IMG/VR virus record: IMGVR_UViG_3300022539_000516
From: a virus
DNA: 64,000 nucleotides
Reading direction: 5' to 3' (one strand)
Numbering within the stretch: the stretch's first letter is position 1; each line of letters starts with the position of its first letter. Shown piece by piece: positions 3,485 to 34,066 of the stretch. A program made the translations under genes and the position numbers. The notes beneath the pieces are model-generated. The model was given only the letters and a program-made list of their open reading frames with translations, did not search any database and was not told where the DNA came from.

Positions 3485-4081
3485 CTAGAGAAGAATTAGA
3501 TAAATTTGAGAATAAAGTTAGAGAACTATTGATTGAAACTGGAGTTGATTCAAATGACCCGATGCTTAAAAATGTAATAGATGTTTTTATTGTAGATGTA
3601 GAACAAAATTGGGTTGAATAGGAGAAGAAAGTGAAAATCATTCTTAATGCCGAATTTGACGATGTACCACATGGAGCATCGGACCTTTGTGGATTATTGG
3701 GAGCTTTAATTAGTAGAACCTGTTTGTACTACGGAGCATCTGCTCCAAAAGAGTTAACTTTTTCAGTCTATTGTGCGGGGGAAATCTATTCTATCACGAA
3801 ATCTCCAGGTTATATTGAAGCTGATGAGCATCCTCAAGATAAACGAATTCGTGAAATGGCAGAGGCTATTGAGGAAGAGAAGGGAAAAAAAGAGAAGTGA
3901 AAGATAATTGGACTAGGCAAAAAATATACGGTGTTTTTCTAGTCGCCAGAGAGACTGGTAAACAAATTGTAATTAAGCTATCACCACATGCAACATATCA
4001 TTTTACAGGAGGATTAGTTGAAAATATCCAACTTCGAGTTGAAGATATTGAAGTAATTGATATCGAGGAGGGCGATAAGAA

Positions 4082-5999: not shown

Positions 6000-6401
6000 A
6001 TGTACGTTAATGCAATACAATGCGAAGAATGTGGTTGTACTGTATATTCCCGTGCAAGACACGACTTTAGAAGCTGTGAATGCGGAAAAGTCAGCATTGA
6101 TGGTGGATTTGATTATACAAAGATTAATTTTAAAACAAAGACAGCACCGGAACCATTTCCTCTTAGAATTGATGCCACTATATGTAAACTTCATACAGAT
6201 TGGGAAACGGAAACAAATAAATATGGATTGATTAAAGGTAAAGTTGAAAAAGAAAATGTTGTTGCTATACTTATACCGGTTCAACAAGTATATATTTATC
6301 CAGGGAAAGATAGCGGGCAAAGACCAATAATGGTATCATTCAACCATGCTCGTAAGATACTTAAAGAACTGAAGGAGTATTTTGAAAAAGATAATACTTA
6401 A
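6000..6401 (+). CDS. conserved phage zinc-finger protein
   Basis: CEECGCTVYSRARHDFRSCECGKVSIDGG. Confidence 0.6.
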   Translation: MYVNAIQCEECGCTVYSRARHDFRSCECGKVSIDGGFDYTKINFKTKTAPEPFPLRIDATICKLHTDWETETNKYGLIKGKVEKENVVAILIPVQQVYIYPGKDSGQRPIMVSFNHARKILKELKEYFEKDNT

Positions 6402-6734
6402 AATAACTGATGAATTGTTTGAGCAAATAAAAAGTGACCTGATAATACGAAAAGGAGTAGATGGTGGTATTTATACCAAGTTAGATGCAATGTTGTGGCT
6501 TATTGCCGGTTCAATAGAAAAAGGCAAAAAAGAAGTAGAGATAGGTTTTAAAAAGACAAAAAAGAAATAAAGGAGATATAACATGGTTGAAACAGAAAGA
6601 CTTATTCGTATCTCTGAAGCAGTTCACGCATTAGCAAATAAAGAAAAGGAAATAGGTGATATTCTTATTCAGACAGCTTCTTTTCTTTTAGACGAAGCAA
6701 AGTGTGATTGCGAGCAATGCAAAGAAAGAAGAAC

Positions 6735-7340
6735 ATGAGAATCAAAATATTTTTTGATACAGAATTTACTGGTATAAGTCAGGATGCTTCACTTATAAGT
6801 TTGGGTATGGTAAGTGAAAATGATGAAGAATTTTATGCAGAGTTTAATGATGTTAATTGGAACGGCCACAACGTCTGTACTCCGTGGGTTAAAGAAAATG
6901 TTCTTCCTAAATTGGAATCATTGAAACTCATTAGTGACAGATACGCAAATGGTAAGTTAAAACATTATTGGACTTCTGTACCAGTAATTAATAAAATGGA
7001 TTATATGACTAACAATTTCAGAATTTTTGCGGATACTTCCAAAATCAAGCATTACTTAAAAAGATGGTTGTCTACATTTGGCGCAGTAGAAATATGGGGC
7101 GATACAATGATGTACGATTGGGTATTATTCTGTGAAATATTTAAAGGAGAACAAAACATACCTAGTAATATCTTATATATCCCGTTTGACATAGCAACTC
7201 TGTTTAGAATAAGAGGAATAGACCCGGATATAAGTAGAAAAGAATTTGCTGGTGTAGATGGAAATGAACATAATGCTTTATGGGATGCAAAAATAATAAA
7301 AACATGTCATGGGAAATTGATGGATTTGGAGGGCCGGTGA
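6735..7340 (+). CDS. 3'-5' exoribonuclease (DEDDh, Rv2179c-like)
   Basis: IFFDTEFTG, YDWVLF, HNALWDA motifs; likely ATG at 6735. Confidence 0.85.
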   Translation: MRIKIFFDTEFTGISQDASLISLGMVSENDEEFYAEFNDVNWNGHNVCTPWVKENVLPKLESLKLISDRYANGKLKHYWTSVPVINKMDYMTNNFRIFADTSKIKHYLKRWLSTFGAVEIWGDTMMYDWVLFCEIFKGEQNIPSNILYIPFDIATLFRIRGIDPDISRKEFAGVDGNEHNALWDAKIIKTCHGKLMDLEGR

Positions 7341-7446
7341 AGAACATCGTAACGGCGGTAGGCGACCCGCTTGGTTGTTGGCGCTGAAAACACTTGATGT
7401 TGTAGGCGAACCGAGGCTTAAATGCAAACAAAGCTCAGCCGGCCCT
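7330..7446 (+). ncRNA. intergenic structured element A (GGCCGG-closed)
   Basis: AGGGCCGG 7330-7337 pairs with CCGGCCCT 7439-7446; internal AACATCG/TGATGTT and GGCGG/CCGCT stems. Confidence 0.55.
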
Positions 7447-7473
7447 TTGAACTACTATGAAAAGGAAATCATC

Positions 7474-7833
7474 GTGAAAGAGAAAGAAATAAAAATTACA
7501 AAAACTGTATGGGAATGTGAAACATGCAAAACTTACCACGAAGAAGATGGTGGTGGAAAATGGTTTGTATTTCACTGTCCTGAACATGGAGAATTTTGTA
7601 ATGATGGGGGAGGTCGTTGTGGTCTATACAGGCTTGTAGAAAAGGTTACCAATCATAGAATTTGTTGTCCAATTTGCGGTTGGAGTGTTTTTAAAAACTA
7701 CGCCGAAGAATATGATTCAAGAGAAGGTGCTAAGCCTGAAACAGCGAGGAAAAAGGAAAGTTTTTATAAAGAACAACAGTCCATACTAAAATACCCGCAA
7801 GCATATAGTGGTTGTACATCTTTTAAGAGATGA
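7474..7833 (+). CDS. Cys-rich hypothetical protein
   Basis: GTG 7474 after GAAAAGGAA; CETC, HCPEH, CCPIC; the 7375 start in the track runs through element A and is probably wrong. Confidence 0.6.
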   Translation: MKEKEIKITKTVWECETCKTYHEEDGGGKWFVFHCPEHGEFCNDGGGRCGLYRLVEKVTNHRICCPICGWSVFKNYAEEYDSREGAKPETARKKESFYKEQQSILKYPQAYSGCTSFKR

Positions 7834-7851
7834 TTGCATCTGGAATAAGGA

Positions 7852-8280
7852 TTGAAAATGGAAAAAAAGTTTAAGGTATGGAATACTGAGAGCAAGAAAA
7901 TGTGTGGTACATACACATTGACAGAATTACTATTACTTAATGCCAATGAAGCCTATGTTGCCGGTATTGTTGAAGCTTTACAACCTGTAAAGTGTAGAAA
8001 ATTAGAACCAAAAATAGAAGATTGGAATCATCTGATATTTCTAGAGTCTACTGGTCTTCCAGATAAAGATGGAACAGAAATATTTAAAGATGATATTTTT
8101 GAAACATCTACAAATAGAAGAGGTAAAGTTGTCTTTAAAAACGGAGGATTTGTTCTAGAATTTTATAAACCTTTAGAACAATGTCATCTAGTATACTTTA
8201 TTAAAAATGGTAAAGTTCTTGGTAATATTTATGAGAATCCTGAACAAGTAATGGAACTTCCCAACAGGAATATGGAATAA
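7852..8280 (+). CDS. YopX family protein
   Basis: KFKVWN, STGLPDKDGTEIFKDDI, VLGNIYENPE. Confidence 0.85.
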   Translation: MKMEKKFKVWNTESKKMCGTYTLTELLLLNANEAYVAGIVEALQPVKCRKLEPKIEDWNHLIFLESTGLPDKDGTEIFKDDIFETSTNRRGKVVFKNGGFVLEFYKPLEQCHLVYFIKNGKVLGNIYENPEQVMELPNRNME

Positions 8281-8281
8281 A

Positions 8282-8680
8282 ATGAACGCACCTAGAATTT
8301 GGGATAAAAAGAAGAAGATTATGTATCATCCAGACCAAGTGTGTCGTTTACACTTTACCAAAAGTAAACTATATGGGGTGGTTCTATGGGATGGTAGTAC
8401 ATTATTTAATAAAGATTTTATAGCTTTAAAACCTACCGGTCTTCCAGATAAAAACGGGACAAAAATATTCGAAGGAGATATTTGTAAAGATTATATGGGG
8501 TATTTACATAAAGTGATTTGGGATAAGAAATACCTTTCTTTTATGTTCGAAAGAGCTGATGGAACACTATTATCTGGCGTGGGACAGAATGCAGAGGGTT
8601 TTCAAGCAGAAGTCATTGGTAATATTTACGAAAACCCTGAATTTGAATTTAAACCCTTAAAACAAAAAAGGAGGAAATGA
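8282..8680 (+). CDS. YopX family protein
   Basis: TGLPDKNGTKIFEGDI, EVIGNIYENPE. Confidence 0.85.
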   Translation: MNAPRIWDKKKKIMYHPDQVCRLHFTKSKLYGVVLWDGSTLFNKDFIALKPTGLPDKNGTKIFEGDICKDYMGYLHKVIWDKKYLSFMFERADGTLLSGVGQNAEGFQAEVIGNIYENPEFEFKPLKQKRRK

Positions 8681-9216
8681 TGGAAATAACCATCACTGAA
8701 GCACTTGCTGAATTGAAAACAATCAGTAAAAGAGTAGAAAAGAAGGAACAATTTGTTTCTCGTTATCTATTGAGACAGGAAGCACTGAAAGACCCATTAG
8801 AAAAAGATGGTGGTTCATTTAATGCAATTCAGGAAGAACAACAGGCTATCCATGATTTGCAGGAGAGAAAGATTACAATCCGGAGAGCGATTCAGGAAGC
8901 TAACATGGAAGAATATATTGTACTTGGCAAAACAAAAAGAACTATTGCCGACTGGCTCGTATGGAGACGAGATGTTGCGCCATATACTAAAAACTTCTTT
9001 GATGTTCTGTCTTCTCAGATTGAAAGAACAAGAACTGAAGCAACAAGAAAAGGTTTAACAGTAGTAAGTGGGGAAGCAAGTAAACCAACTGATATTGTGG
9101 TTAATTTAAACGAAAAAATATTGTCAGAAAAAATAGAAGCATTAGAAGAAGTTCTTGGTACATTAGATGGACAGTTATCGCTGAAAAACGCAACGATTTT
9201 AATTGATGTTAAATGA
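8677..9216 (+). CDS. coiled-coil protein, DIP1984/DUF6847-like
   Basis: MEITITEALAELKTISKRVEKK N-terminus and LSLKNATILIDV C-terminus resemble this family (recalled, not searched). Confidence 0.5.
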   Translation: MMEITITEALAELKTISKRVEKKEQFVSRYLLRQEALKDPLEKDGGSFNAIQEEQQAIHDLQERKITIRRAIQEANMEEYIVLGKTKRTIADWLVWRRDVAPYTKNFFDVLSSQIERTRTEATRKGLTVVSGEASKPTDIVVNLNEKILSEKIEALEEVLGTLDGQLSLKNATILIDVK

Positions 9217-9240
9217 ATAAAATGTTCATTGAGAATTAAA

Positions 9241-9586
9241 TAGCCTTCGGCAACGAAGTGAGAGAAGAGTTTGGGATAAATTGTGGACTTGAAATCCACC
9301 AGCGAGCCATGTAAAAATGGCATGAACTAACTCTTAGAAAGCTCAGAGCTTAATTCTCAAAGATACTTCGTTCAAGTCTGAAAGCGCAAAAGGTAAAAGC
9401 TGGTCGAAATCCGTTGTAAACCTAGTCGTTGCAGAAATGTAACGAACATCCACCCCCAAATAGGATGTTCTCAGGGTAACGGCTGTTGTTTGGAGGCTTT
9501 TAGAAATAAAATAGGTCGGTTGCGCATCTTTATTGCGTCACTTCTCGTGAAGAAACCCGATGTACCTGCCGATTGCCAACCGGCCT
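9241..9586 (+). ncRNA. candidate ~345-nt structured RNA directly downstream of the coiled-coil gene
   Basis: no + strand ORF; stems AAGAGTT/AACTCTT, GTGGA/TCCAC, GCCAT/ATGGC, CGTTGCA-GAAA-TGTAACG, GAACATCC/GGATGTTC, AGGTCGGTTG/CAACCGGCCT. Confidence 0.65.
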
Positions 9587-9611
9587 GTTAAACTAATAGA
9601 AAGGAAGAACT

Positions 9612-9860
9612 GTGTCGAAAACACCATATATCGGTTTTGGTAATGATACTTTAGACCAACAACCGAGTGTAAAAAGGGGCGATTTAATTATATGTCCTAT
9701 ATGTGAAAATCGGCATAAGTTGGAAGGTACAGAATCAGAAGATGGAGTAAAAGACCTTATTTTGTTTTATAAATGTGGTGAAAAATTACGTCTTGGCGCA
9801 GTTGATGGAAAACTCGTCGCAAATCTTAAAGTTGATTGTTCTGGTGAAATTGAATTATAA
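9612..9860 (+). CDS. small zinc-ribbon hypothetical protein
   Basis: CPICENRH...FYKCG; GAAAGGAA RBS, GTG start. Confidence 0.6.
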   Translation: MSKTPYIGFGNDTLDQQPSVKRGDLIICPICENRHKLEGTESEDGVKDLILFYKCGEKLRLGAVDGKLVANLKVDCSGEIEL

Positions 9861-9861
9861 T

Positions 9862-10008
9862 GGGCCGGTTGTGGCGTGGTAGCCTAACAATGGTCTTAAC
9901 GGGAGACGCGACCTCCCACGCCGTAACTCGTAGGTATGGTTTCTTGTTGCGAGTGACAAAACAAAGAAAGCCCCACTTGTTGCAGACCAACTGCCAACCG
10001 GCCCTCCA
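9862..10008 (+). ncRNA. intergenic structured element C (GGCCGG-closed)
   Basis: GGGCCGGTTG 9862-9871 pairs with CAACCGGCCC 9995-10004; internal GGCGTG/CACGCC, GGGAG/CTCCC, ACTCGTA/TGCGAGT. Confidence 0.6.
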
Positions 10009-10028
10009 AACTGAGAGAAAGGAATTAA

Positions 10029-10283
10029 ATGAAACTAGCTAAGGATTCTTGGTATGAATTTAACAAATTCCTGCATGCAGGTAGGGGAATGTTGATTTAC
10101 TCGTTGATTCATATTTGTTTCCCCACTGTGTGGAATTGGGTGCCATTTGCTATCGCAGTCGTATTTGCAATTGTCTATGAATTCTATGATGCTCACAGGG
10201 GAGTCAGTTTCAGCTGGAAGGATGTTGTATGTGATATATTAGGTGCAGCGTTTGTCTTGGGACTATGGATGTGGAGAATGTAA
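10029..10283 (+). CDS. small membrane protein, VanZ/YfiM-like
   Basis: KFLHA, hydrophobic helices, YEFYD, FSWKDVVCDILG. Confidence 0.55.
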   Translation: MKLAKDSWYEFNKFLHAGRGMLIYSLIHICFPTVWNWVPFAIAVVFAIVYEFYDAHRGVSFSWKDVVCDILGAAFVLGLWMWRM

Positions 10284-10910
10284 AAAAATCTCAGGAGGAA
10301 AAATGAGCGCAGAAAGTGAAATTGATAGGCTGGCTGATTTTTTGCTAAAGAACTATCCTAGCGAACCTGGCAGAACAGGCGTATCTGAAAGTGCAGTTGA
10401 TGTAGCCATTCGGTTGTTGAGTAAAAAATGAAACCAAACAAACTTATAAATGTTCCGTGGCCTGAGTGTTCAATCGATTGTGAATGTATTAAACATCTTG
10501 GAGCAGGTGAATGCGAAAATGTATGTCCAGAAAAATTTAAAAAGGAAGAGAAATGCAAGAAATGCTTACAATTATAGGTATAGCTATCTTAGTTCAACTC
10601 AGTTATCTTTTAGGCTATATTGCCGGTCAACGCAATATAGCTGAATATTTCCATATAAAACTGCAACCACCACCGAAGGATTCTCCATGAAAGAACGTTT
10701 TCTTTTAGAAGACGATAAAAATTATTTGGAACAAATAATACCTAAAATGAGGGAAGAATCAATAAATCCTGATGGAAGTGAAACATCAAGAAGAGTAGCA
10801 ACAACCGTATTAGAACGAGCAATCATACAACTGGATAAGGTTAGAAAAGAATTGAAAGAATACGATACATCTTAAAAGGAGAAGTTCGGAAGTGATGGAG
10901 AGAATATAGT

Positions 10911-11357
10911 ATGAAAGAAATACTTGGGGACCTCTTTGAGCAAAAAGATGCTGATGCTATCTGTATAACTACTAATGGTTTTATCAAAAGGAATGGCGAA
11001 GCTGTTATGGGCAGAGGTTGTGCCAGAGAAGCCGATGAAAGATGGAAATGTGCTAAAGAAGTAGGAGACATTCTGAAAGAGTATGGTAATAATGTCCACA
11101 TACTTCGACATGGAATACCACATACAGTGGTAATTTTTCCGGTGAAATATCATTGGAGGCAAAAGGCTGATTTGATACTTATTAAGAGGTCTACTCAGCA
11201 GTTAGTGGAGTTAGCTGACCGTCTCCACTGGAAGAGAATTGTGGTTCCAAGGCCGGGGTGTGGTAATGGAGGTCTAAGATGGGAAGTGGTCAAACCTGTC
11301 CTTGAACCAATCTTAGATGATAGATTCTTTGTGATAACGAAGGTTAAAAAGAACTGA
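10911..11357 (+). CDS. macrodomain (ADP-ribose-binding/hydrolase) protein
   Basis: GDLF..ADAICITTNG..VMGRGCA, FPVKYHW, VPRPGCGNGGL. Confidence 0.8.
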   Translation: MKEILGDLFEQKDADAICITTNGFIKRNGEAVMGRGCAREADERWKCAKEVGDILKEYGNNVHILRHGIPHTVVIFPVKYHWRQKADLILIKRSTQQLVELADRLHWKRIVVPRPGCGNGGLRWEVVKPVLEPILDDRFFVITKVKKN

Positions 11358-12925: not shown

Positions 12926-13073
12926 GAATCCGCAATTGCAGAGCTTAGAAAGGCTTCACCAGAGGCGTTGTAAGGCGATAGAATGAAATGGTGGGCTGTT
13001 GATATAGCTAAACAAAAAAGTCGTCACCACGAGCCTTATATGAAGCCATTTAAACGAAGGGATTAGCGGATTC
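12926..13073 (+). ncRNA. intergenic rod-like structured element
   Basis: nested stems GAATCCGC/GCGGATTC, GGCTTCA/TGAAGCC, TAAGGC/GCCTTA in an ORF-free gap. Confidence 0.55.
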
Positions 13074-14255: not shown

Positions 14256-14803
14256 AGGGGTGAAAAAATGGATTCCATAAAAGCAGAAATAATAGCATGG
14301 CGAGAAATTGAAAAACTGTCTTGGAAGCAAATAGAGAAAGAAATACAGAAACAACTTGCCAATTTTGAGCTATCAATGGACAATATCAAGAAAATGTTTG
14401 CTGATAGATGGGGTAAGGGTGTTTGGATTGAAGATGAAAATTGAAGAACGGATAAGGAGGAGGTTGTGAAACAAATCGTTATCAAAATGAGTGACCAGAT
14501 GTGTGAAATGTTTTCCACCGTTCTTCTATTTAGAAAAGACAGAAAAACCTTTGAAAAAGGACTTTTAGAAAAAACTTTCACCACAATACTTGATGCTATA
14601 AAGAAGAATGAAAAAGAAGTAACAATAGAATGAAACAAAAAGTTAAAGTATCTATAACTCCTATAATTATTCGTTGGACTTGTTCTAATTGTCAGATGAC
14701 ATGGACGGAGAAAAGATATAACATGCCGTCTCGGTGTTTTCCTCTCCATTGCGACGAATGTAGAGGATTTTTTGAAGGTGAATGGCCGGAAAGGAAAAAA
14801 TAA

Positions 14804-15238
14804 ATGATAGTCTATAAAGTTGTTCGTACAAAAGGAAGAATGGGACGTCTTGTTAGCCTTATAGTAATAGACAGGAAAGTAATTCTTAAATACCGTATTA
14901 ATAAAGAAACAAAGCCAAAAATTGGAAAAATATTTGCTTTTTCAAATCTCAGGGATGCAAAGCATTTTGCAGAAGCTTTTCAGGGATATCTTCCAAAGAT
15001 TCTTGAATGTAGTGCAGAAAATGTAAAACCTATAAAATTCCTTGCTGGATTTGCCTACCATGAAATAGTATCTCAAGAGTTTGAGCTTTTCTGGGAAAAT
15101 TATTTTCGTATACCTTTAAAGGATAGATTGACATTGAGTGATGCAAAAATACAAAAATACATTCCATGTTTTGTATTTGCGCCGGAAGGTTCTGTCTGCG
15201 TAGATAGTTTAACTCCGAAAAAGGTTGTAGAATGTTGA
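14804..15238 (+). CDS. YKVV paralog family member 2
   Basis: VYKVV, PKIGKIFAF, ILECSA, FW, PEGS, SLTP. Confidence 0.85.
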   Translation: MIVYKVVRTKGRMGRLVSLIVIDRKVILKYRINKETKPKIGKIFAFSNLRDAKHFAEAFQGYLPKILECSAENVKPIKFLAGFAYHEIVSQEFELFWENYFRIPLKDRLTLSDAKIQKYIPCFVFAPEGSVCVDSLTPKKVVEC

Positions 15239-23820: not shown

Positions 23821-24276
23821 ATGATGCAAGTAATTGACCTATTTTGTGGTGCAGGAGGATTCAGTAAAGGATTTGAATTAGCAGGTTTTGAAAATGTATT
23901 AGGTTTGCAAACATATCTTCCAGAATATTTGCCGAGGTTTAAGTTAAAAGCATCAGATTTTGGATGCGAAACAGGTAGAAGAAGGCTTTTTATTGGAAAT
24001 ATACCAAAACCACGATTGCAATTAACTGATGTAAACCCTAATCCGAAAAGAGTTTTAATTGCAATTGATAATAGAAATAAAAATAAACCATTGCCTCCAG
24101 TCTTAGATTTGGATGAAATGAAATTTGAAGGAACGACTAAAGAAATGCGACAATTACAAGCAAATTGTGTTCCTCCATTAGTTGCAAAAGCGATAGCAAA
24201 AAGTATATTAGAAAATGAAGGTAGGTGTTACAAAATAACAGAACAGAGATTGGAACAGGAGACTTTGCCGTTATGA
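23821..24276 (+). pseudogene. internally deleted C5-cytosine methyltransferase
   Basis: motif I DLFCGAGG, motif VIII-like ASDFG..RRRLFI and motif X ANCVPP present; catalytic PC (IV) and ENV (VI) region absent; ORF still open. Confidence 0.7.
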
Positions 24277-26620: not shown

Positions 26621-26621
26621 T

Positions 26622-26708
26622 GGAGAGATGGCCGAGTCTGGATTAAGGCAACTGACTGCTAATCAGTATGGAGGATACTCCACCCAGGTTCAAATCCTGG
26701 TCTCTCCG
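26622..26708 (+). tRNA. tRNA-Ser(GCT)
   Basis: acceptor GGAGAGA/TCTCTCC, anticodon arm ACTGA-CTGCTAA-TCAGT, long variable arm, T-arm CCAGG-TTCAAAT-CCTGG; CCA not encoded. Confidence 0.95.
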
Positions 26709-27679
26709 TTAAAACATAGGATTGTATTATGAATCTAAAGAAAGCAAGAAAAATAAGAACAACTGCTCGTCTTTCAAAAGAATTGGAGAAAATTAGAAAA
26801 CATATAAGTTCAATACTGGACTATTCTCCCTATAATTTATGTCTTGGTGGAGAAGATGCTAATGAACTAGAAGGAATTATGTGGAAAATAGAAATAATCC
26901 TTGCAAATACAATGAGGAAACAATTACAATGACAGAAAGTTACATTAAAAAAATAGAAAAAGCAGAAGAATTAAATAGAATATTTCTTGCATCTGGACAA
27001 TATGGATGGTGTGTTGAACACCAGACAGAACTTGAAGTAGACGAAGATGGAATGTGTTGTCCGGTAGCATGGGCAAAATTTACTGACGAAGGTGATGATG
27101 TGCAATGCGAAAATGCTTGGATAGAACTCTTACCTTCCAATTTTCTTTTAGAAATGATACCAGTTAGTCCGGGGTATGAAATCAGAATACGAAAAACAAA
27201 TGTAAAAGGTGAATATATGTGGAAGGTTGAACTATTAAAAATAGAAAAAGTTCAAGCTTCTTTGCCAAATAAAGACCATACTCCATATATGGGAATCCAG
27301 GAATCTTTAATAGATGAAACTGATTCATTCGATTCTCCAGAAGAAGCTCTTATTGTAATGTTGTATTTCGTAAAATACGGAAAAGATTGGGACAAAAAGA
27401 AATTAGATTGGATAAAAATAAATGCTTGAAAGAAAAAACAAGATAGGCTTCAAAGCAAAATTCTGGGATTTTTCATTCTCCCATATACTTTTAGTTTGTA
27501 GAATTCTTATGCACATAAATCCTTATCAAGCTACTGAATACTGGTGGCACCAAAACATATGTGATTGGTTCTGTGCAAAATATTACGGAGTTCCTGTAAC
27601 AAATTTTACCACATGGAAGAAACGACCTCATTTCTGGACTTGTTTAATTGATATTTTGTGGGAAGAAAAAATCTAATAA

Positions 27680-29387: not shown

Positions 29388-30149
29388 ATGACTTCTGAAT
29401 TTCAGCAAATTCTTGGAGAAAAAGCCGAATCTGTAATTCTTGCCGGTTACATAGGAAGTATAGCACATGGAACAATTATCCCCGGTGGTACAGATGACAA
29501 AGATGTAGTATCTGTTTCTATTGGTTCAGTCAATAATTACTTTGGTCTATCAAATTTTGAGGGATTCAGAATTCAAAAGGACGAATGGGATATATGCGGT
29601 TACGAATTAAGGAAATTTTTTCGATTGCTTTTAAAACAGAATCCAAATGTACTCGGTCTTCTTTGGCTCAGACGGGAACATTATATACATTTAACTGAAA
29701 TTGGACAATCCATTATTGATAGCAGAGATTTGTTTTCCTCGAAACAGGCATATAAATCGTTTACAGGATACGCCTACGGTCAGTTACATCGCATGACTGC
29801 TTTTAAAAAATATGAAGGATATATGGGGCAAAAGCGAAAAGCAGTTGTAGATAAATTTGGATTCGATGTAAAAAATGCAAGTCATTTGATACGTTTACTA
29901 AAAATGGGAATAGAATTCATGTCTACTGGAGAGTTAAATGTAATGAGACATGATAATAATATGCTTATAGATATAAAACGTGGAAAGTGGTCACTAGAAA
30001 AAATTAAAGCAGAAGCTCAACGATTGTTCGCATTAGCAGACGAAGCACTTGTCAACTCACATTTACCCAATAAACCAGATAGCAAAGGTGCAGAAAAACT
30101 ATTAATTGGAATATTAGACAAGCATTTTTCAAACAAAGGAGGTGAATAA
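29388..30149 (+). CDS. Pol-beta superfamily nucleotidyltransferase (RlaP/YcgL-like)
   Basis: GSIAHG...DDKD, YELRKFFRLLLKQNPN, YDxK-like FDVKNASHLIRLL. Confidence 0.85.
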   Translation: MTSEFQQILGEKAESVILAGYIGSIAHGTIIPGGTDDKDVVSVSIGSVNNYFGLSNFEGFRIQKDEWDICGYELRKFFRLLLKQNPNVLGLLWLRREHYIHLTEIGQSIIDSRDLFSSKQAYKSFTGYAYGQLHRMTAFKKYEGYMGQKRKAVVDKFGFDVKNASHLIRLLKMGIEFMSTGELNVMRHDNNMLIDIKRGKWSLEKIKAEAQRLFALADEALVNSHLPNKPDSKGAEKLLIGILDKHFSNKGGE

Positions 30150-33196: not shown

Positions 33197-33225
33197 TTGA
33201 CAAGTAAACTCTGAAATGATATACT
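33197..33225 (+). promoter_or_regulatory. sigma70 promoter
   Basis: TTGACA-17 bp-TATACT with extended TG. Confidence 0.8.
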
Positions 33226-33405
33226 CGGGCTTGTCCTATATAATAATAGAAGCAACTCGGTAGCCCTTAGACTCGATTCTCATAAGTTCTTTTATATCAT
33301 AGACTTAGCAAACTCACTACAGGCTCGTGGTGCGCTTTTCTCGCCCTAAGTCAAGCTATACCCTTGACTTAGAACGAATATCGCCTGCAATGCGCTGGAA
33401 AGGGG

Positions 33406-33434
33406 TTGACATAATTGGAGTCGCTGAATATGGT
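33406..33434 (+). promoter_or_regulatory. sigma70 promoter
   Basis: TTGACA-17 bp-TATGGT. Confidence 0.6.
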
Positions 33435-33543
33435 TGAAATAGGCCGTAACAGGCCACATAACTGTAGAAATCAGCAAAAGGCGATTGTTAGCCTAAGTCG
33501 TTATACCACAACGACTTGTGGGGTGAGGCCAAAACAAGGCCAC

Positions 33544-33568
33544 TCTCTATAATATAGTATTATAGAGA
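33544..33568. repeat. perfect 11-bp inverted repeat
   Basis: TCTCTATAATA-TAG-TATTATAGAGA. Confidence 0.85.
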
Positions 33569-33627
33569 CTATAGCTAAGTCCTTATACCACAACAACTTA
33601 CGGCGACAAAAATAATGATAAAAAGAC

Positions 33628-33656
33628 TTGACATTGTATCCTGTCCGTGTTATAGT
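33628..33656 (+). promoter_or_regulatory. sigma70 promoter
   Basis: TTGACA-17 bp-TATAGT with extended TG. Confidence 0.85.
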
Positions 33657-33665
33657 GTTACTGAG

Positions 33666-33733: not shown

Positions 33734-34066
33734 ATGTTGAAAACCCTTACAGAAGAGCAAGCTCTTGCAGGAAGCGGCTCGCAACTTCCAGCGGCAGAAC
33801 TTAGCAAAGTTTTGCAAGCTTGGGACAAAAACACCATCATCACGCCAGCGACAGTTATGGACTTTTTGGTGCACGATGTCAGAAAGTCCCACGACAATGC
33901 GAAAGCGATGGAACAAGAAGAGAGAGATGCACTTCGCAAGGTGGTGGTAAACACCTTGACCGGACTTGTCAAGTCCGGAATCTGCACAAAAAACATCGGC
34001 GGCGAAAACCGCCGGGGGAAGTACAAGAGAGTCAAGATGACGAACTCCGCAAGGAGTAGAAGGTAA
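33734..34066 (+). CDS. hypothetical basic protein, possibly winged-helix DNA-binding
   Basis: strong RBS GAGAGGAG, own promoter, GC-richer codons than neighbours, basic C-terminus. Confidence 0.7.
   Translation: MLKTLTEEQALAGSGSQLPAAELSKVLQAWDKNTIITPATVMDFLVHDVRKSHDNAKAMEQEERDALRKVVVNTLTGLVKSGICTKNIGGENRRGKYKRVKMTNSARSRR

Follow-up and report, generated by a model that had tools for sequence, protein, structure and literature searches.

Large uncultured phages carry hundreds of small genes in very long transcripts, and the expression and swapping of single genes within these transcripts are little understood. Several described systems can be compared with the elements treated here. The leader of T7 gene 10 is composed of a 5' stem-loop, the epsilon motif and a Shine-Dalgarno sequence, while the RNase III sites of the T7 early region are single irregular hairpins of about 20 base pairs (bp). 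The put RNA of phage HK022 is a two-hairpin RNA of about 70 nucleotides (nt), which is located just 3' of a promoter and 5' of the terminators that it suppresses, and its interior is conserved between copies. The attC sites of integrons, 57-141 bp long and used by an IntI tyrosine recombinase with attI nearby, are imperfect palindromes in which L'' pairs with L' and leaves extrahelical bases; their 5' end carries the R'' box (RYYYAAC) and their 3' end the R' box (GTTRRRY). In this study, we analysed 64,000 nt of the IMG/VR virus record IMGVR_UViG_3300022539_000516 (the window, meaning this whole stretch of DNA), in which three GC-rich elements, E1 (7330-7446, 117 nt), E2 (9513-9586, 74 nt) and E3 (9862-10004, 143 nt), are located between plus-strand genes.

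Repeated sequences near start codons and between small genes have been reported in other phages. SAS of the Cluster K mycobacteriophages is a 13-bp sequence (GGGATAGGAGCCC) with 11-19 copies per genome, located 3-8 bp ahead of start codons, and ESAS consists of 17-bp inverted repeats with a spacer of 4-13 bp; the role of SAS/ESAS is thought to concern translation (PMC3203893). The promoter-early stem-loops (PeSL) of T4-type phages combine a strong sigma70 promoter with a terminator stem-loop (PMC2839356, PMC4122927). They are repeated modules between small accessory genes and form recombination joints for modular shuffling (PMC2839356). The epsilon motif has the sequence UUAACUUUA (PMC9590205).

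We found that E1, E2 and E3 form a real, non-chance and lineage-specific repeat family. Our tentative reading, to which we give a probability of about 0.4, is that they are lineage-specific intercistronic modules in the plus-strand mRNA of a long, promoter-poor operon, and that their ends also served as recombination joints.

Anatomy and distribution of the elements

The elements are GC-rich islands in an AT-rich genome, as an earlier note made from the sequence had described. Their GC content is 54-56% (55.6% in E1, 54.1% in E2 and 55.9% in E3) against 32.7% for the window. They are among the few GC islands of the window, and the sole non-coding ones within 1-33 kb. Every element is closed by GGYCGG/CCGGCC, and the pair tables agree with this closure, which had also been noticed before. 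The closing stems pair G7328-G7337 with C7439-U7448 in E1, A9510-G9522 with C9577-U9589 in E2 and G9862-G9871 with C9995-C10004 in E3. The CCGGCC/GGCCGG hexamer was counted 10 times against 2.5 expected, a number reached by 0 of 100 shuffles, and five of these 10 copies are inside the elements. E2 and E3 moreover have common ends, GGYCGGTTG...TGCCAACCGGCC, with 12/12 identical positions on the 3' side, which agreed with the claim that two elements share this motif. The unit consists of a 5' arm of 7-13 nt, a GC-rich filler (101, 54 and 123 nt) unrelated to that of the other elements, a 3' arm and a leader of about 22-25 nt. The parts are listed below.

7328..7337, plus strand: E1 5' arm, GGAGGGCCGG; with 7325-7327 it forms a helix of 13-14 bp, with a pair probability of 1.0 when folded within 7180-7620
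7338..7438, plus strand: E1 interior, 101 nt, GC-rich, unrelated to the other interiors
7439..7448, plus strand: E1 3' arm, CCGGCCCUUU; three wobble pairs with the 5' arm, at the outer end
7449..7473, plus strand: E1 leader, GAACUACUAUGAAAAGGAAAUCAUC, running up to GTG 7474 of the gene for a 119-amino-acid (aa) protein
9510..9522, plus strand: E2 5' arm, AAUAGGUCGGUUG; its stem is present in the minimum-free-energy fold of 9217-9611
9523..9576, plus strand: E2 interior, 54 nt
9577..9589, plus strand: E2 3' arm, CAACCGGCCUGUU; a 14-bp helix with the E3 5' side is also possible
9590..9611, plus strand: E2 leader, AAACUAAUAGAAAGGAAGAACU, running up to GTG 9612 of the 82-aa gene
9862..9871, plus strand: E3 5' arm, GGGCCGGUUG
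9872..9994, plus strand: E3 interior, 123 nt
9995..10004, plus strand: E3 3' arm, CAACCGGCCC; with 10005-10010 it is the perfect complement of 7325-7338 (E1 5' side)
10005..10028, plus strand: E3 leader, UCCAAACUGAGAGAAAGGAAUUAA, running up to ATG 10029 of the 84-aa gene

The distance from the end of the element to the start codon is 27 nt in E1, 25 nt in E2 and 24 nt in E3, and all three leaders follow the pattern RAACU-N4/5-GAAA(A)GGAA. These values bore out the description of a start codon 24-27 nt downstream, reached through AACT...GAAA(A)GGAA. The Shine-Dalgarno sequence in the leader is placed 7-9 nt before the start codon. In the window, exact matches to CCGGCCYNNNRAACT were found at the three element 3' ends only, and exact matches to AACTNNNNGAAAGGAA in E2 and E3 only, the E1 variant being longer by one base. 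The shorter GAAAGGAA has 8 copies in the window, which is at chance level, and it is not the general ribosome-binding site of this phage. The identity between E2 and E3 comes in blocks (TGCCAACCGGCC with 12/12, AAACT and GAAAGGAA), with diverged positions between the blocks. It suggests constraint rather than uniform decay after duplication.

The interiors differ both in length and in sequence, as first described, and their Smith-Waterman scores were no better than those of 1000 dinucleotide shuffles (p 0.28, 0.64 and 0.26). The idea that E3 is a mosaic, with an E1-like 5' half, an E2-like 3' half and compensatory pairs, was withdrawn since alignment and folding were at shuffle level.

Two of the elements are located at or just after the upstream stop codon, and this part of the earlier description was also correct. 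The exonuclease gene takes its last three codons (E-G-R) and its TGA (7338-7340) from the 5' arm of E1, and the homologues end three residues sooner; in an alignment with 9 homologues, the exonuclease family stops at ...KLMxL and the window protein extends by EGR. E3 starts 2 nt past the TAA (9858-9860) of the 82-aa gene, and the C-terminus of the 82-aa protein, GEIEL, is the family consensus. At 14781-14806, GGCCGG is directly joined to AAAGGAAAAAATAAATG at the overlap of two genes, which amounts to the arm hexamer with a leader-like ribosome-binding site. This fusion could be chance or a collapsed element.

The earlier note had envisaged further copies of the stem motif, and none of them was found in the window, which covers 64 of the 134.5 kb of this genome, or, among the matches listed, in the public collections searched, which were genome collections of 596 Gb, plus IMG/VR, INPHARED and the records of five related phages. 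The pattern search of IMG/VR returned chance matches only, in GC-rich contigs. In GTDB genomes there were at least 120 pattern matches, and all were chance among the matches listed. The blastn search of INPHARED matched the RNase gene alone, and five related phages, searched as whole records, had a single AT-rich chance match. As for known RNA families, among them riboswitches, ribozymes, put-like leaders, Y RNA and group I introns, the Rfam 15 gathering scan of the window detected just a tRNA-Ser (26622-26708), the Rfam scan of 7200-10100 at E<=10 gave two chance-level matches, both outside the elements, and ARAGORN found nothing inside the elements.

Strand, folding and cross-pairing of the arms

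The whole elements were more stable than shuffles in folding, with z values of -2.2 (E1), -4.0 (E2) and -2.6 (E3). The arms contain wobble pairs, which are U9516-G9583 and U9512-G9587 in E2 and G7328-U7448, G7329-U7447 and U7327-G7449 in E1. These would become A-C mismatches if the other strand were folded. The predicted stability of the plus strand was -44.9 kcal/mol vs -36.9 kcal/mol for the minus strand in E1, and -28.8 vs -22.7 kcal/mol in E2. The wobble pairs, together with an arm spacing of 54-123 nt at which no cruciform forms in duplex DNA, indicated that the folded form is the single-stranded plus strand. The folded molecule would most simply be the mRNA, or less probably single-stranded DNA.

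Any 5' arm can pair with any 3' arm, and the extensions past the core are specific. The 5' side of E1 forms 14 bp with its own 3' side, three of them wobbles, and it pairs with the 3' side of E3 at 14/14 Watson-Crick positions, which is also a 14/14 blastn match on the minus strand. The 5' side of E3 forms 14 bp with the 3' side of E2, vs 10 bp between the arms of E3 itself. The 3' flanks of E1 (CUUUGAA) and E3 (CUCCAAA) differ by three transitions, each of which still pairs, through a wobble, with UUUGGAG. The equilibrium fold of 9480-10180 is a nested one with a probability of about 0.8, in which the 5' arm of E2 pairs with the 3' arm of E3 and the 3' arm of E2 with the 5' arm of E3, and the 82-aa gene is looped out. 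The fillers of E2 and E3 also pair with each other slightly better than shuffles (z -2.1, p 0.04). The cross-pairing of the arms fits a history of partner exchange between the elements, and a functional long-range fold is also possible.

Directly 5' of E2, a non-coding region of about 290 nt (9217-9509) contains two more domains that are closed by stems (about 9226-9362 and 9377-9505). The stems in question are UUGAGAAUUAA/UUAAUUCUCAA at 9229-9360 and UCUGAAAGC/GCUUUUAGA at about 9377-9505. The fold of 9217-9611 had -108.1 kcal/mol and z -3.14, with no Rfam match. The domains of 9217-9509 are context and not family members, because their closing stems differ. Another stem-closed intergenic RNA-like element of 145 nt (GAAUCCGC...GCGGAUUC) was observed at 12926-13070, where it is directly followed by AGGAGG and a GTG start, with a z of -3.4 for the gap.

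The operon, the proposed module and its rivals

The window contains about 146 plus-strand open reading frames (ORFs), which are tightly packed with gaps of mostly 0-20 nt or overlaps. On the plus strand of 1-33197, no strong sigma70-type promoter (TTGACA-N17-TAnnnT) was found. Promoter-like and terminator-like sites near the elements were at chance level, promoter-like sites in 6000-11000 were below the shuffle expectation, and the scan gave no plus-strand terminators downstream of the elements. The lack of a strong promoter before 33197 and the tight gene packing suggest that the elements lie deep within one long polycistronic transcript. A promoter inside or before the elements was considered and rejected. 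TAAAAT and TATAAT are present just 5' of E2 and E3, without a good -35, and the scan was at chance; transcription started from these hexamers would begin within the arm.

The genes around the elements are listed below.

6708-7340, plus strand: 3'-5' exoribonuclease, Rv2179c / RNase T-like, with a 201-aa form from 6735 (Pfam PF16473, E 5.6e-11; PHROG 2259, E 3e-44)
7474-7833, plus strand: Cys-rich protein of 119 aa, GTG start at 7474, no match in Pfam and PHROG
9612-9860, plus strand: zinc-ribbon-like protein of 82 aa (protein family alignment), GTG start at 9612
10029-10283, plus strand: membrane protein of 84 aa, ATG start at 10029
Among the genes around the elements: two YopX proteins
Among the genes around the elements: a coiled-coil protein of 179 aa
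Among the genes around the elements: a macro-domain protein
Among the genes around the elements: a radical-SAM protein

Relatives of the 119-aa protein were sought and none was found. The RNase T-like protein had no loci in IMG/VR and was absent from the five phage records with a radical-SAM homologue, and the radical-SAM relatives were not syntenic. No E-like element was present in 33 loci homologous to that of the 82-aa protein. In L082, which is an unrelated phage, the 82-aa homologue has its intergenic leader on both sides as a direct repeat of 27 nt, GCCTTTTTTATTGAGGTAAGRAAATGA (3590-3617 and 3867-3894). Such flanks are what the insertion of a cassette through recombination at a repeated leader would leave. 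In one phage represented by three loci (L087, L089 and L102), a different GC-rich spacer of 315 nt precedes the 82-aa homologue and comes after an RlaP gene, and the leader, TAATAGGAAAGGAAATAATG, resembles that of E2.

Two ideas about the flanked genes were not supported. A foreign origin was rejected, as GC and GC3 were unremarkable with the exception of the 84-aa gene. An intron dividing the 179-aa and 82-aa genes was also rejected, because the 82-aa family begins with M..PYIGFGN and has its own ribosome-binding site in at least 30 loci, and because in L087 the 82-aa homologue comes after a different gene.

Some further observations concern the same genomes. In L087 (1369-2688), the RlaP homologue is directly 5' of the spacer and the 82-aa homologue, which hints at a small protein-RNA repair link, and an RlaP-family nucleotidyltransferase (RNA-repair-associated, PF10127) is encoded at 29388-30149 of the window. 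L087, an AT-rich related phage contig, also harbors a HEARO RNA (IscB omega RNA; 120.7 bits, E 2.9e-24) at 7874-8102 on the minus strand, accompanied by a 453-aa ORF that is probably IscB. The record of L102 (G006) has non-coding GC-rich islands at 73873-74009 and 74107-74198, possibly tRNA-like RNAs, and the first of them holds a T-loop-like GGTTCGACTCC. In the window, a 533-nt non-coding gap (33197-33660) contains three perfect TTGACA-N17 promoters (33197, 33406 and 33628) and three similar hairpins (CUAAGUC...UAUACC...GACUUAG-like) near 33345, 33495 and 33577. This gap looks like a regulatory hub or operon start, and a GC-rich 110-aa ORF (33734-34066) without a Pfam match comes after it. 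Of the C5 cytosine DNA methylase profile, a 151-aa ORF (23821-24276) matches positions 1-26 only (E 2e-10); this ORF is located between N6/N4 methylase genes (21660, 23074 and 24469) and could be part of a split methylase or a truncated one.

According to our reading, each intercistronic module would have two parts. The first would be a GC-rich clamp helix of 10-14 bp, GGGCCGG(UUG)/(CAA)CCGGCCC, around a non-conserved filler of 54-123 nt, and it would begin at the upstream stop codon or within it. The second would be the single-stranded leader RAACU-N4/5-GAAA(A)GGAA, which may give the next gene its own Shine-Dalgarno sequence. We presume that the clamp would end translational coupling and block 3' exonucleases for the upstream message, and it would probably be a double-strand-specific processing site for that message. 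The downstream cistron would keep a uniform purine-rich leader and so start independently. Since the arms and the leader are repeated, they may have acted as homology for recombination, and small gene cassettes would have been inserted or exchanged between them. The anatomy, the block-wise conservation, the plus-strand wobbles and the arm cross-pairing were observed directly, and we infer the processing, stability, translation and recombination steps. The earlier note had proposed a family of cis-acting RNA signals or cassette-boundary elements; this general reading fits the block conservation, the wobbles and the cross-pairing, and the specific analogies with put and attC did not hold.

Several observations weigh against the module. 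The interiors alone fold at shuffle level (z +0.18 in E1, -1.16 in E2 and -0.30 in E3), so folding gives no evidence that the filler evolved as a structure, and the module does not account for its GC richness. The minus strand of E3 is slightly more stable than the plus strand. When enforced in 9500-10035, the nested E2/E3 fold was about 5 kcal/mol better than two local hairpins, which means that local hairpins are not the sole possible structure; in vivo, folding during transcription and the passage of ribosomes would probably shift the balance towards the local hairpins. The predicted accessibility of the ribosome-binding sites was ordinary (63rd, 26th and 86th percentile of 145 genes) and gave no support for an insulator effect. 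The clamp helices of 10-14 bp are short of the approximately two helical turns usual for RNase III substrates, and the analysis identified no nuclease or RNA-binding protein with specificity for the elements. Moreover, three copies only were found, all within 2.7 kb of one uncultured genome, and no relatives were found for an independent covariation test.

The main rival makes recombination the primary role. The elements would then be DNA-level cassette-boundary or recombination sites with functional inverted arms, and the fillers and the leader similarity would be by-products of repeated insertion. The agent may be a recombinase acting on folded single strands, as at attC, or the arms may offer microhomology for homologous or illegitimate recombination, as in PeSL. 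We regard this explanation as unlikely but a serious contender. It would account for arms kept in sequence and not in pairing alone, for interiors that are unrelated and have no excess folding, and for sizes of 74-143 nt that overlap the attC range, but the order of the attC R boxes (RYYYAAC...GTTRRRY) is reversed here (GGTTG...CAACC) and the centres are unpaired. Exchanged partners are suggested by the 14/14 pairing of the E1 5' side with the E3 3' side and by the 14 bp between the E3 5' side and the E2 3' side. The position of the 82-aa gene between E2 and E3, that of its L082 homologue between direct repeats, and the stop codon overwritten by E1 point the same way. On the other hand, about 80 ORFs of the 64-kb window revealed no recombinase of the tyrosine or serine type, no HUH enzyme and no transposase, and three sites only were found. 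Outside the arms, conservation is confined to one side, that of the leader with its Shine-Dalgarno sequence, which argues for an expression role.

It is quite unlikely that the clamps are processing stalks that free three different small RNAs (the fillers, 54-123 nt), in the way that rRNA intervening sequences or precursor rRNAs are excised. It is true that unrelated GC-rich interiors are here combined with a common stem and a common downstream leader, and that a high GC content against an AT-rich background is typical of stable RNAs (it is 52% in the tRNA at 26621-26709); other stem-closed non-coding domains are also nearby, at 9226-9505 and 12926-13070. However, the interiors showed no excess folding stability, no Rfam or tRNA match and no conservation in the collections searched, and no promoters or terminators of their own were found in the scans.

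A decayed mobile palindrome that lands at gene ends and has no function, of the kind of a MITE or of the GC clusters in AT-rich mitochondrial genomes, is very unlikely in our view. The copies of a MITE have a common interior, whereas the interiors here are unrelated, and there are no target-site duplications. With their terminal inverted repeats and high GC content, the elements do resemble insertions into an AT-rich genome; the end of a gene is overlapped by E1, and A(A/T)TA(A/T)AAT precedes both E2 and E3. However, just one of the two flanks of the inverted repeats is conserved, and the 596 Gb of genomes (for GTDB, among the matches listed) and IMG/VR yielded no copies.

We consider it improbable that the elements serve integron-like gene capture, in which plus-strand hairpins with GGGCCGGTTG/CAACCGGCCC ends and free centres would be cut and exchanged by a recombinase encoded elsewhere in the 134.5-kb genome. 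In that case, each captured gene would get a ready-made ribosome-binding leader, and the perfect 14-bp match of the E1 left side with the E3 right side would be the scar of one site that took in 2.7 kb of cassettes.

It is highly improbable that the elements sustain RNA polymerase through a unit of >33 kb, either as put-like RNA for processive antitermination (the HK022 put analogy of the earlier note) or as ops-like DNA pause signals. In favour of this idea, the long operon lacks internal strong promoters, the only exact GGCGGTAG of the window (first 8/12 ops bases) is at 7354-7361 in E1, and the structured spacer 12926-13070 holds GGCGATAGAATG, 11/12 to the ops consensus GGCGGTAGnnTG. Against it, E2 and E3 have no ops motif, ops-pattern matches in the window are at chance (12 found, 11 expected), the elements are not behind a promoter (no strong one in 1-33197) and have no intrinsic terminators after them, no motif is common to all interiors, no NusG or RfaH-like gene was among the ORFs scanned, and the conserved parts are the closing stem and the Shine-Dalgarno leader instead of an interior motif.

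If the intercistronic module works in the proposed way, it would be a compact natural part that separates neighbours on a common transcript and provides the following gene with a standard start. In this respect it could be compared with SAS/ESAS, PeSL and the T7 leaders, and it might offer a handle for moving gene cassettes. Its weight is limited, as it is a three-copy feature of one metagenomic genome.

Comparison with known systems

The put RNA differs from the elements in that the interiors here are of 54-123 nt and unrelated, and the closing stem alone is in common. The ops/RfaH site differs as GGCGGTAGnnTG is not in every element; E1 alone has GGCGGTAG, followed by GCGA. MITE, REP and Correia-type repeats, which have many copies with a common interior and often a target-site duplication, are unlike the three copies found here, which have unrelated interiors and no target-site duplication.

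The attC sites are similar to the elements in having conserved inverted ends and a variable centre, in size (74-143 nt here), in the promoterless genes of the same orientation and in single-strand folding. However, the arms here read GGYCGGTTG...CAACCGGCC, so that both strands have GTT in the left arm and AAC in the right one, 10-14 bp pair only, and the interiors have no excess folding. No IntI tyrosine recombinase was found in the same set of about 80 ORFs of the window, which is 64 kb of the 134.5-kb genome.

The T7 gene 10 leader is nearest in layout. In each case, cistrons of a long phage transcript are separated by a structured element, after which come an A/U-rich leader and a purine-rich Shine-Dalgarno sequence, and the E2 leader GUUAAACUAAUAGAAAGGAAG resembles GUUUAACUUUAAGAAGGAG of T7 gene 10. 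There is no sequence homology. PeSL is nearest in genome behaviour. Both are short repeated intergenic modules, and the cross-paired arms and the L082 direct repeats suggest joint behaviour here as well. Unlike PeSL, the elements have no promoter or U-tract (3' flanks CUUUGAACU, UGUUAAACU and CUCCAAACU) and consist of a clamp, a long filler and a Shine-Dalgarno leader. SAS/ESAS is nearest in architecture, as both have an asymmetric conserved ribosome-binding leader before the starts of some non-structural genes in one orientation. In contrast to SAS/ESAS, the arms here are of 7-13 bp, the spacer is of 54-123 nt and GC-rich, the sequences are unrelated and three copies are known. Taken together, E1, E2 and E3 are members of none of the SAS/ESAS, PeSL, T7 leader and attC families, and they are a three-copy variant of the intercistronic regulatory or cassette joints of phages.

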